A stretch of DNA of 47,382 bases from a virus (taxonomy: Duplodnaviria; Heunggongvirae; Uroviricota; Caudoviricetes): the IMG/VR virus record IMGVR_UViG_2684623189_000004; one strand, written 5' to 3'. How positions within the stretch are numbered: position 1 is the first letter of the stretch; the number at the start of each line of letters is the position of its first letter. The notes beneath the pieces were generated by a model. The model made no database searches and was not told the DNA's origin. It saw only the letters and a list, made by a program, of their open reading frames with translations. The position numbers and the translations under genes were made by a program. Of the stretch, positions 35,075 through 38,639 are shown piece after piece.

Positions 35075-36195
35075 AGCCTGCTTCTCCTTGCCTTTCGGCA
35101 CGTAAGAGGCTAACCTAGATTTGCCGTTCATAGATTGAGCCTCAGATTAATGTTAAGCGTCTTGCAGGACGCGTAATATTAACTGGGGCTTTTCTCTATC
35201 TGCCTTTGGTGTTCATGCCTGAGGCAGATAGCCTCAAGCACCCGCAGCAATTCTACTTAACTCCCGTCACCTCGCCAATATAAAATCAATCAGAAAGGCG
35301 ATCCATAAGAACAACAGCAAGACAATAAATTGCCATTACAGCCGCAATAGCTAGCGCACATTTGAGAACCAGCACGACAACCTCCTGTATTGGACGTACA
35401 CCAGTTCTGATAAATATGAGGCTGTCTCATCATTGATTCAATATAACTATTGGGTATAGTTTCTGTGATTTTGTTCTGTAGAAATGGAACACAACAACCA
35501 GTCACCACCAGCACTTCTTTAAATACGCCAAGTCCGACGCAAGCTAACCTTCTAGTCCGCTTTGAGCGATCTGCAGACATTGCTAGCAGCCTTCTGTGTG
35601 AATTCTCAGGGAGCAGGTCGGCATAGCATCACGTTGAGGCTCTTACCCTACTTGTTGACACCAACCCTAACTCCACAGACTGATTCATAAATTAGTAATC
35701 TGCGTGTTTCGCACTTTTCAGAAATGCTTTCATATTTTCATTAGGTCGCTCAATTTCGAAGTTACTTCCATATAACTCTTGTAATTTTGGCCATAACTTA
35801 CTTAATAACCCTCTCCTGCGATAAAATGGATGTATCCAAACGGTAGATAGGTACGGAGAATTTGCATTTGAATTGTTTATTGTGACCAGCCCAACTAAAC
35901 ATTGTCGATAACCACTATTATCCATTGATTGTATTTCTTCGACGAATGGATACGCGATTACATCAGTCCAACCATGATCGGTTGTATCCCATTGCATTCC
36001 GTCATGACATTCCTTCGACTGATAGCGGCGTAAAGCTACACACGCGAGCTTTTGCCAATCTGGAGAATTAATTGTGATCTCTTCATCGTATGACGCGCCT
36101 ATTGGAGCGGGTATTGGTCTGATTAATCCAGCATGGCATTGGTGATGCTGCCAACTTACTGATTTAGTGTATGATGGTGTTTTTGAGGTGCTCCA

Positions 36196-36471
36196 GTGGC
36201 TTCTGTTTCTATCAGCTGTCCCTCCTGTTCAGCTACTGACGGGGTGGTGCGTAACGGCAAAAGCACCGCCGGACATCAGCGCTATCTCTGCTCTCACTGC
36301 CGTAAAACATGGCAACTGCAGTTCACTTACACCGCTTCTCAACCCGGTACGTACCAGAAAATCATTGATATGGCCATGAATGGCGTTGGATGCCGGGCAA
36401 CAGCCCGCATTATGGGCGTTGGCCTCAACACGATTTTACGTCACTTAAAAAACTCAGGCCGCAGTCGGTAA
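36196..36471 (+). CDS. insA: IS1 InsA
   Basis: 91 aa [40 protein letters not shown]. Confidence 0.9.
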
Positions 36472-36893
36472 CCTCGCGCATACAGCCGGGCAGTGATGTG
36501 ATTGTCTGCGCTGAAATGGACGAACAGTGGGGCTATGTCGGGGCTAAATCGCGCCAGCGCTGGCTGTTTTACGCGTATGACAGGCTCCGGAAGACGGTTG
36601 TTGCGCACGTATTCGGTGAACGCACTATGGCGACGCTGGGGCGTCTTATGAGCCTGCTGTCACCCTTTGACGTGGTGATATGGATGACGGATGGCTGGCC
36701 GCTGTATGAATCCCGCCTGAAGGGAAAGCTGCACGTAATCAGCAAGCGATATACGCAGCGAATTGAGCGGCATAACCTGAATCTGAGGCAGCACCTGGCA
36801 CGGCTGGGACGGAAGTCGCTGTCGTTCTCAAAATCGGTGGAGCTGCATGACAAAGTCATCGGGCATTATCTGAACATAAAACACTATCAATAA
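36390..36893 (+). CDS. insB: IS1 InsB reading frame (expressed as InsAB' by -1 frameshift at TTAAAAAACTC)
   Basis: 167-aa frame overlapping insA 3' end; A6C slippery run at about 36446..36456. Confidence 0.85.
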
Positions 36894-37485
36894 GTTGGAG
36901 TCATTACCCATGGCATTCATCATAGAACTTCATGTTTCCCTCAGAAACGTTGTGTACGTTGGGTTGCTCCATGTGTGCGCCATTCAAAAATAGCTCTGAT
37001 AGTAGTGTATCTACACTGTAATCTTTATTGATTATTGTCGGCTTAGAGTTTTTCTTATTAAGGCCGCGAGTAACGATTTTTTGATCAATGTTAACAACAT
37101 GGAATAATCCGTCGGGGAGGCTAGCGAACCACGATGGGGCATCGGACCAGAATAGCATGCCTTTTGTACTTCTTAAGAGTTTAATTAAGTTAATACAAGC
37201 TTCTTCACTAGTCTTGCCGTTGATGCGAAGTATGTTAGGACTAAAGTAATATTCATCCATATCAGGGAATGCAGCTTCGCAAAACTCCTGTACATAATTT
37301 AGCACCTGGATTCTACAGAGATCATCATAGCTGGTAATAACTAAGGGGGTATCTTCATTACTATTATGATTATCAATAATGCAATCTATAGCGAGACTTA
37401 CTGCTTTGCGTATCACTTCAGTTGAATCTAACGACTCTAAAAATTTTGTCTTTCGTGTGCGAATATCCATGTATGACCTGCGCTA

Positions 37486-38448
37486 TTAAAATTCATGAAT
37501 GAACGGTTTGTCATCTGGTTGCAAAATGGTGGTTTTATTCGTTGCTACATTTAAACTGTTGTAGAGCATAATTGCCAGGTTCGATGCATTTTCAATCAGC
37601 GTTTCAAGATCCTGGTCTGTAATCACTACGAGGTTCCCTTCTTTATCCTTTCCACCACGATGCACTAAGTGATTTCGATTGAGGGTTGCCAATTCAATAG
37701 CTTCTATCGGACAGTCTTTTTGTACTTTTATATCGAATGTAGCTTCATAGCGGTCGATTACCTTTTTAGTGCTATGCCAGCTTGCACTGATCAAGTGTTC
37801 CTTGATTGACCTGATTAGCTCTCCCCTAATTTTCTCGATGGGTTCACCCTTGAAAGGCAACGCAGCAATATCTTTGCTTACTTTAAATTCAGTCTTACCT
37901 TTTTCTATACAATTGGCTATGTAGACATCATCTTTCTCTATAGAATTAATGAATAGCTCAACATAAAGCGTTTCCAAAGCTGTAATAACATTCGTGTAGA
38001 GCAAACTAAGCAAGTGGTTTTTTTGCTGTTGTTCAGTTTTATCTTTTGCAAGTTTTTTTATTTTATCGATATTATCAATGAATTTTAAATACGGATTACC
38101 GGAAGACGTTACAGCGTCGTAGATATCATCATCGTACCAATCATCTATATTATTTGAGTTTCCAGACCAGTCAAAACATTGTGTTTGTAATTCATCTACT
38201 AATTCCTCAATATACTCAGATTTAACATATTGACCGAAGATGGATTGTAGTTCTTCGCTCGCATCATACGGCCCGCCATATATGTAAGCATAGCCACCTT
38301 CTCTACTTTCATACGGACAAGCATTTGCCGGATCTTCAAAGTTTTCAAAGAACCAGTTTTTCATTACTTCGAGTTGATCTTTTTTGCTTATGTATTTTAA
38401 AGATTTTAGTGGAACTTTCTTTCCATTAACCTCGAAAACAATTTTCAC
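37486..38448 (-). CDS. gene A of AT-rich cassette, 320-aa hypothetical protein with C-terminal HEPN-like Rx4H motif
   Basis: GTG start with AGGGAG RBS 9 nt upstream and extended -10 TGgTATAAT; RNHLVH motif in helical C-terminal region; 16 nt from gene B. Confidence 0.5.
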   Translation of the reverse strand: MKIVFEVNGKKVPLKSLKYISKKDQLEVMKNWFFENFEDPANACPYESREGGYAYIYGGPYDASEELQSIFGQYVKSEYIEELVDELQTQCFDWSGNSNNIDDWYDDDIYDAVTSSGNPYLKFIDNIDKIKKLAKDKTEQQQKNHLLSLLYTNVITALETLYVELFINSIEKDDVYIANCIEKGKTEFKVSKDIAALPFKGEPIEKIRGELIRSIKEHLISASWHSTKKVIDRYEATFDIKVQKDCPIEAIELATLNRNHLVHRGGKDKEGNLVVITDQDLETLIENASNLAIMLYNSLNVATNKTTILQPDDKPFIHEF

Positions 38449-38481
38449 GATGTAACGCTCCCTTGTATCAATTGCGCAACT

Positions 38482-38493
38482 ATTATACCACAG
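38482..38493 (-). promoter_or_regulatory. extended -10 promoter element (TGgTATAAT) for the AT-rich cassette
   Basis: minus strand CTGTGGTATAATAG about 35 nt upstream of the GTG start. Confidence 0.35.
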
Positions 38494-38639
38494 CGAAATA
38501 CAGAGCATAACCTGCCTCCTTAAACTAACATACCATGAGCCAGCAATGTCCGCTATTGGCACAAAGCGGACAACCACGCTAGCTCTACCCTGTGCCACAA
38601 AATGTCAATTTGCATCTGAACTAATGCACTTTAATCTCG

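Follow-up and report, generated by a model that had tools for sequence, protein, structure and literature searches.

The question that this locus raises is whether two adjacent prophage genes, one of them broken by an insertion sequence, are a toxic module that has been switched off or a defence system that still works. They lie in a 47,382-nucleotide stretch of viral DNA (IMG/VR virus record IMGVR_UViG_2684623189_000004, hereafter the window), which is a 100% match to Escherichia coli SF-173 and comes from a Qin-like prophage. There, upstream of the hok/sok locus and on the minus strand, gene A is followed by a 16-nt gap and by gene B, into which IS1 has inserted. The initial annotation had described the pair as an uncharacterised cassette of a HEPN-like and a GNAT-like gene, a candidate defence or toxin module inactivated by IS1, perhaps through selection against an active copy. 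The coordinates of this co-directional pair were verified, and the cassette turns out to be an already-known system with the same sequence, DS-33. The best explanation for it, to which we give a probability of roughly 0.8, is a DS-33 cargo block placed in the prophage slot otherwise used by relBE, in which A is the working part and B an accessory.

DS-33 (working name 'GNAT') comes from the DefensePredictor study (Science 2026; PMC13092281) and is marked as defensive in its Table S6, which bears out the proposal of an anti-phage module. It is not uncharacterised, as the same A and a near-identical B have already been cloned and assayed, alongside an R258A variant of A. The published locus (NZ_QOWT01000046.1, 6922-8901) encodes WP_014639476.1 and WP_000354965.1 (PMC13092281). 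Gene A of the window is identical to DS-33A over 320 of 320 residues (sequence from Table S8 of PMC13092281), and gene B, restored by removing IS1, is identical to DS-33B (WP_000354965.1) at 332 of 333 residues, with P289 here and L289 in the published protein. Table S7 of the same study gives the log10 protection of MG1655 in two replicates. The wild-type system protected by 2–6 logs against T7 (3.8 and 2.6), T3 (3.3 and 2.4), Bas67 (4.0 and 2.0), and Bas26 (5.0 and 5.9), with values of 0.8 and 0.1 for T5 (PMC13092281). Deletion of A brought these figures to 0.08 and -0.30 (T7), -0.48 and 0 (T3), 0 and -0.18 (Bas67), 0.52 and 0.30 (Bas26), and 0.54 and 0.08 (T5), and the R258A substitution to 0.78 and 0.46, -0.30 and 0.30, 0.52 and 0, 0.74 and 0.43, and 0.37 and 0.30, in the same order (PMC13092281). 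With B deleted, the values were 4.8 and 4.3 for T7, 3.3 and 3.3 for T3, 4.0 and 3.3 for Bas67, 5.0 and 4.9 for Bas26, and 1.7 and 0.55 for T5 (PMC13092281). From these deletion and R258A data it follows that A is necessary and sufficient and that the arginine of its Rx4H motif is required. B may be dispensable against the phages tried, perhaps even slightly inhibitory, a statement that rests on the L289 allele. The main text of PMC13092281 does not discuss DS-33 by name and gives no mechanism for it.

Gene A (37486-38448, minus strand; WP_014639476.1, 320 amino acids) is intact and begins with GTG. The protein is made up of an N-terminal HEPN/RES-NTD1 domain (hereafter NTD1, approximately residues 20–95), a helical linker, and a C-terminal RiboL-PSP-type HEPN domain, and its fold is the alpha-helical one of HEPN proteins. 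The Rx4H motif reported in the initial annotation, RNHLVH (R258-H263, codons at 37660-37677, minus strand), is the signature of the HEPN superfamily and is predicted to be catalytic. Across 45 homologs, R258, H263, and R264 never vary, and neither do E159 and W224-H225. The assignment to HEPN holds up at the level of the family as well, with PF18870 (HEPN/RES-NTD1) detected in 43 of the 45 full-length homologs (E ≤ 0.01) and PF18735 (HEPN_RiboL-PSP) in 21 of 45 (best E 9.9e-10). Gene A shows dN/dS values of 0.05–0.16. Neither A nor the 45 homologs had a meaningful match in PADLOC v2 (2023), NCBIfam returned no useful match for A or B, and in PHROGs both proteins match families of unknown function. 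NTD1 is a modular domain joined to different RNase effectors, with PIN_8 and RNase E/G plus S1 among its other partners, and its fusion to RES and other domains has been described (PMC3710099). It is this modularity that leads us to read NTD1 as the regulatory or sensing part of the protein.

In the mechanism that we propose, DS-33A would be a sensor and effector in a single chain, the C-terminal HEPN domain of which most likely cleaves RNA by means of R258 and H263, at a site to which both subunits of a HEPN dimer probably contribute, as they do in other HEPN RNases. Before infection the RNase would be held inactive, NTD1 being the likely regulatory or sensing module, and its activation would stop phage growth, probably through a shutdown of translation in the infected cell. 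B would be a co-transcribed accessory, either damping A slightly or having a separate function. The RNase activity, RNA target, dimerisation, sensing by NTD1, and abortive infection assumed here for DS-33A are drawn by analogy from the HEPN family (PMC3710099) and from the DARNA system (bioRxiv 10.64898/2026.02.22.705581).

The insertion itself is easily described. IS1 (36141-36908, transposase on the plus strand; 768 bp, complete, of the IS1A type) interrupts gene B at codon 187/188 and is annotated in RefSeq as an IS1A family transposase with a programmed frameshift. It lies between the two copies of a 9-bp target-site duplication, CATGGCATT (36132-36140 and 36909-36917), a perfect direct repeat (family D2) with its copies 777 bp apart. 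When IS1 and one repeat copy are excised in silico, a frame of 333 amino acids ending at 35692 is restored, which agrees with the reconstruction in the initial annotation and is identical to the intact WP_000354966.1 of strain UTI89. As it stands, the 5' part of gene B (36909-37470, minus strand; DS-33B residues 1–187) encodes the alpha/beta N-terminal domain, with a predicted truncated product of 188 amino acids that ends inside IS1, and the 3' part (35692-36140, minus strand; residues 185–333 and the stop codon) encodes the divergent GNAT-fold domain, severed from its start codon. IS1 sits downstream of A, and both A and the promoter region are intact. What IS1 severs in this allele would be the GNAT domain of B alone, with A presumably still expressed in SF-173 and the defence most likely retained.

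These data bear directly on the view that a toxic module was switched off here by selection against its active copy. Active HEPN proteins are often toxic (PMC3710099), and IS1 does interrupt B. However, IS1 has not touched the effector A, which has exactly the sequence of the active DS-33A, B has lost no more than its GNAT half, and the removal of B does not abolish function, since its deletion leaves the defence intact or stronger. Nor do the genomes support selection against the module: all complete E. coli genomes with A (209/209) have B as well, and in 40 genomes sampled from the 209 carrying B the gene is split in SF-173 alone. Furthermore, IS1 has inserted independently at other points of the locus. 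In E. coli AHB12 (L122) it truncates gene A, in a prophage that has its replication and immunity region deleted up to the exonuclease gene, and in E. coli 2017.18.04CC (L129) it lies in the spacer between B and hok. IS1 favours AT-rich DNA. Because independent copies are found in A, in B, and in the B-hok spacer, the three insertions, in different strains and within ~3 kb of AT-rich DNA, look like an insertion hotspot or target preference and not like a targeted loss of B. We consider inactivation of a toxic module very improbable and the IS1 in B most likely an incidental event that spared the defence gene.

The second protein of DS-33 is more enigmatic. B has an alpha/beta N-domain of ~190 residues followed by a divergent GNAT fold, the latter in agreement with the initial annotation, and its AlphaFold2 model has a pLDDT of 89.7 and a pTM of 0.83. 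The N-terminal 190 residues have no family or PDB sequence match, and against Pfam PF00583 the protein scores 19.9 bits, with a cut-off of 20.7. The equivalent of GNAT motif A is HPFYRRRG (residues 288–295, codons at 35809-35832, minus strand), within the stretch VWIHPFYRRRG, and it aligns to RHQGIG of RibT. Compared with the usual motif (R/Q-x-x-G-x-G/A), B reads HPFYRRRGLL, in which G295 is common without being invariant and L, M, or I stands where the last G/A would be. By contrast, H288, P289, and R292 are invariant in 41 homologs, and all of 18 small GNAT relatives have HPF-R. Position 289 is where the published protein differs, as the tested DS-33B has Leu and Pro is found in the window, in UTI89, in all 41 B homologs, and in the 18 small relatives. 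In an exact-sequence look-up, at least 1000 contigs had the P289 allele and 31 had L289. To judge from these comparisons, the tested allele is rare and may be catalytically impaired, and the test of B alone, in which A was deleted and no protection was seen, used the L289 allele too. B is under purifying selection, with dN/dS of 0.24–0.40 in lineages where it is paired with A and in those without A. No PADLOC model matched B or its 41 homologs.

One could go further and suppose that the common P289 form of B has acyltransferase activity and uses it to tune or gate the HEPN RNase, perhaps with acetylation of DS-33A itself or of its substrate, RNA or aminoacyl-tRNA. We think this improbable. If it were so, DS-33 would be an acetylation-regulated HEPN, the counterpart of AMPylation in HEPN-MNT systems, the published test would have missed the role of B owing to P289L in the cofactor-binding motif, and the IS1 allele of the window would be a natural de-regulated mutant.

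Several points have to be set against a DS-33 block with A as its working part and B as an accessory. The published system was expressed from a plasmid in MG1655 and not from this prophage. For DS-33, the text of PMC13092281 has neither an RNase assay nor a test of abortive infection, and it names no RNA target or trigger, which is why the mechanism is offered by analogy. Gene A by itself reaches only 22.2 bits against PF18870 (E 1.9e-4, residues 26–92), below the gathering threshold of 27.4, and has no match to PF18735 at E ≤ 1. Since the tested B carries P289L at an invariant residue, its dispensability has been shown only for a possibly crippled protein. Finally, the constant association of A and B in E. 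coli hints at some functional link between them.

That association is the starting point for a different explanation, in which A and B form a two-component system and B restrains A as an antitoxin or safety catch, by binding through its N-domain or by acetylating A or its substrate. IS1 would then yield a de-repressed or partly regulated HEPN in the window. The two genes are co-directional, and the whole cassette with the same 16-nt spacing is kept in Serratia (97% nucleotide identity) and in Aeromonas caviae (86%) as well as in E. coli; without B, protection was stronger against T7 in both replicates (by 1.0 and 1.7 logs) and, in one of them, against Bas67 and T3 (by ~1 log), and residues 1–187 of B are still translatable despite IS1. 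Nevertheless, the strain with B deleted was viable and defending, and the stronger defence could simply reflect altered expression from the shorter construct. The pairing also dissolves outside these near-identical loci, so that the co-occurrence expected of an obligate toxin and its partner, and proposed at first as a check, was borne out within E. coli and failed elsewhere, where both genes are also found alone. Using a profile of A and one genome per species, we surveyed 80 loci, clustering the neighbours within 3 kb, and found no recurrent partner of A, since no neighbour family appeared in more than three of the 80 loci and B stood beside A in just the two near-identical ones. Close relatives of A at 73–77% identity (Aeromonas taiwanensis, Yersinia) lack B, as do all the distant ones. 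In Yersinia alsatica (L006, 4338-6945), for instance, a 73%-identical A lies without B in a P2-like prophage, between replication and portal genes; elsewhere a solo A homolog adjoins an integrase, and further copies are found in other cargo positions. It is evident that A and B are separable in nature, A being found alone across many phyla and B alone in other gammaproteobacteria, and a B that exists to restrain A seems to us rather unlikely.

Two of these loci deserve a comment of their own. In Yersinia alsatica, A is divergent from the adjoining gene, which encodes a 453-amino-acid protein also ending in an Rx4H motif (ESRNKIIHQP), so that two different HEPN-type genes share one cargo slot. 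In Aeromonas caviae CP025706 (L109, 4026-8293), the A and B cassette sits in a relaxase-bearing element beside a SIR2 gene overlapping a cREC_REC gene, probably another defence pair.

The solo copies of B suggest yet another explanation, namely that B is an independent passenger, whether a defence gene in its own right, with a phage range unlike that of A, or an acetyltransferase of benefit to the phage (in counter-defence or host modification). On viral contigs with B, A was found upstream in 21 of 26 cases, and one of the remaining five contigs begins at B. B without A, at 85–86% identity, is found in Enterobacter islets, in an IS-flanked island, and behind a P4-like primase gene, and by blastn these copies retain the upstream region of the cassette and the last 57–77 nt of A. 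Two kinds of deletion end-point indicate that A was lost at least twice independently with B left intact; the -10-like element of the cassette is kept in just one of the two deletion types. After these events, B has remained intact together with the cassette promoter region, at dN/dS of 0.25–0.40, which also argues against B as a mere brake on A. More distant B homologs (39–56% identity) are solo genes, a further point against obligate pairing, and they appear in defence-island-like settings, one of them adjoining an Abi_2 gene and another among TerB, BrxC/BrxD-like, helicase, Mrr_cat, and HEPN_Toprim_N genes. Purifying selection fits an independent role as well, as do the phage genomes encoding relatives of the GNAT half (see below), and the DefensePredictor log-odds for B are positive but low, at 1.08 (PMC13092281). 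On the other hand, constructs lacking A did not protect against T7, T3, T5, Bas67, or Bas26, with B carrying P289L, no PADLOC model matches B, and B is never apart from A in complete E. coli genomes. The acyltransferase activity is a prediction, for which PMC13092281 reports no assay, and a bulky residue takes the place of the final G/A of motif A. An independent B is possible, although we hold it only tentatively.

The GNAT half of B has a family of its own. Proteins of ~160 amino acids match this half alone (E 1e-37 to 1e-20 in a whole-library profile search), and of the four contexts that could be read two were phage genomes, the others being uninformative. The GNAT half of B thus belongs to a phage-carried family of ~160-amino-acid proteins. 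A tblastn search of complete B against 50,697 phage records gave no match, and a word-indexed search for the small relatives yielded just nine proteins, with no recurrent partner in their contexts. The two phage-encoded homologs (L124, 4001-4483, and L125, 4001-4549), of ~160–180 amino acids, adjoin replication or structural modules: one of the genes shares 4 nt with the end of a DUF3987 primase-like gene, and the other sits between a DUF2188 gene and an antirepressor gene. We also came across a chimeric protein (P0148; L107, 5644-6606) in which the N-terminus of the prophage DnaC-like protein, up to the Walker A motif, is fused in frame to residues 133–333 of B. Deletions of this type, seen in some E. 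coli contigs, have removed gene A and the N-terminal domain of B.

Returning to DS-33 as mobile cargo, the cassette spans 35618-38572 (minus strand) and amounts to 2,178 bp without IS1 and one repeat copy. It comprises a putative promoter region of its own, gene A, and gene B. By blastn, homology among the different contexts runs from a hairpin at 38571 to ~74 nt past the stop codon of B, and the block recurs in Serratia (97%), the relaxase-bearing element of Aeromonas (86%), Enterobacter islets, and a P4-like satellite. It is AT-rich, as had been noticed, with a GC content of 36.1% in A, 39.1% in B, and 38.5% in the cassette without IS1, against 52.4% and 49.0% in the flanks. The upstream edge is formed by the hairpin, the inverted repeat GTCCGCTTTGTGCCAATAGCGGAC (38548-38571, minus strand), with a 7-bp stem (GTCCGCT...AGCGGAC). 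The sequence diverges directly 5' of it, both here and in four other contexts (L103, L114, L115, and L116), and the hairpin might be a recombination or regulatory site.

Expression signals are present at the positions given in the initial annotation, the -10 as a match in sequence. The putative cassette promoter is an extended -10-like element, TGGTATAAT (38482-38490, minus strand), which a consensus promoter scan did not call because it has no good -35 hexamer; in the cassettes that lost gene A and still have it, it stands directly 5' of B in the form GTGGTACAAT. An AGGGAG ribosome-binding site (38458-38463, minus strand) lies 9 nt ahead of the GTG of gene A (38446-38448). Overall, the terminator and promoter scans gave counts close to those expected from shuffled sequence. 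The Rfam search of the region matched sok alone (RF01794, 113 bits against a gathering score of 59), and hokD with the full-length sok antisense RNA (34919-35243, minus strand) follows directly downstream of the cassette. In the Qin prophage of K-12, relBE occupies the equivalent slot upstream of hokD, as the initial annotation had stated, and UTI89 and many other extraintestinal pathogenic E. coli strains carry the same prophage with the same A (WP_014639476.1) and an intact B (WP_000354966.1). Between the end of the cassette and sok there is also an open reading frame of 96 amino acids (35290-35580, minus strand) with a Cys-rich C-terminus, CTSNTGGCRAGSQMCASYCGCNGNLLSCCCSYGSPF. RefSeq has no annotation for it in SF-173 or UTI89, and it could be a chance reading frame or a small peptide gene.

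What had been flagged as an uncharacterised toxin module inactivated by IS1 is, therefore, a published and validated defence system with its active gene intact. As A is intact and identical to DS-33A, the strain should be scored as carrying DS-33 defence. Beyond PMC13092281, the comparison presented here adds the natural separability of A and B, with A deleted twice and B kept under purifying selection, the tie between the GNAT half of B and a phage-carried family of ~160 amino acids, and the observation that the allele behind the dispensability of B is rare and substituted at a family-invariant position of the GNAT motif. With such an allele, the published test may not have revealed what the GNAT partner does.

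Among known systems with a GNAT protein, TacAT, AtaRT, and KacAT consist of GNAT toxins of ~160–180 amino acids with a small RHH/DUF1778 antitoxin and are found on mobile elements. A GNAT fold on a mobile element is what DS-33 has in common with them. We rejected a toxin–antitoxin pair of this kind for the cassette, which has no RHH/DUF1778 gene and a B of 333 amino acids with a 190-residue N-terminal domain, and B had no family-level match in Pfam or NCBIfam to the TacAT, AtaRT, or KacAT toxins. The HEPN-MNT toxin–antitoxin systems (HepT/MntA, type VII) were likewise discarded, given that the partner of A has a GNAT fold and an unrelated alpha/beta domain and is not an MNT nucleotidyltransferase; moreover, A has 320 amino acids with an extra N-terminal domain, and deletion of B is tolerated, not lethal.

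The RiboL-PSP-HEPN and MAE_28990/MAE_18760 families of HEPN proteins are closer. Anantharaman et al. (2013; PMC3710099) described, by computation, HEPN/RES-NTD1 fused to HEPN domains of the MAE_28990/MAE_18760 type, along with a RiboL-PSP-HEPN family distantly related to AbiD/AbiF, and predicted that both are RNases of conflict or defence. DS-33A resembles both in having an NTD1 of ~100 amino acids followed by an Rx4H HEPN domain predicted to be catalytically competent. Those families, however, were defined by computation only, and A falls below the Pfam cut-offs and is linked to them through its homologs. A GNAT partner for these HEPN families is not described in that paper (PMC3710099), where 'GNAT' appears twice in the text and 'acetyltransferase' never.

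With PD-T4-2 (Vassallo et al., 2022; PMC9519451), DS-33 shares the condition of an E. coli defence system containing a HEPN domain. PD-T4-2_B, a RiboL-PSP-HEPN protein, is the best remote HHblits match of A (probability 96.1, over 55% of the protein; PMC13092281), although A is related to it remotely and through the HEPN domain only, and the PADLOC models of PD-T4-2 match neither A and B nor their 45 and 41 homologs. In architecture, DS-33A is comparable to DARNA/PD-T7-3 and to DS-11 (CBS plus HEPN), where an Rx4H HEPN domain and a non-catalytic regulatory domain are joined in one polypeptide with no antitoxin. DARNA confers protection from T7, has phage single-stranded DNA-binding protein on single-stranded DNA as its trigger, and cleaves tRNA (bioRxiv 10.64898/2026.02.22.705581). 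Its HEPN domain is N-terminal, with a Pds5-like C-domain, and both domain order and partners differ from those of DS-33A; the likeness drawn here is one of architecture. The nearest system is DS-33 itself. The window departs from it in having B split by IS1, with only the N-terminal 187 residues that can be made, and in P289 in place of the tested L289; common to the two are an identical A, a B that agrees in 332 of 333 residues, the gene order, and the 16-nt spacing.

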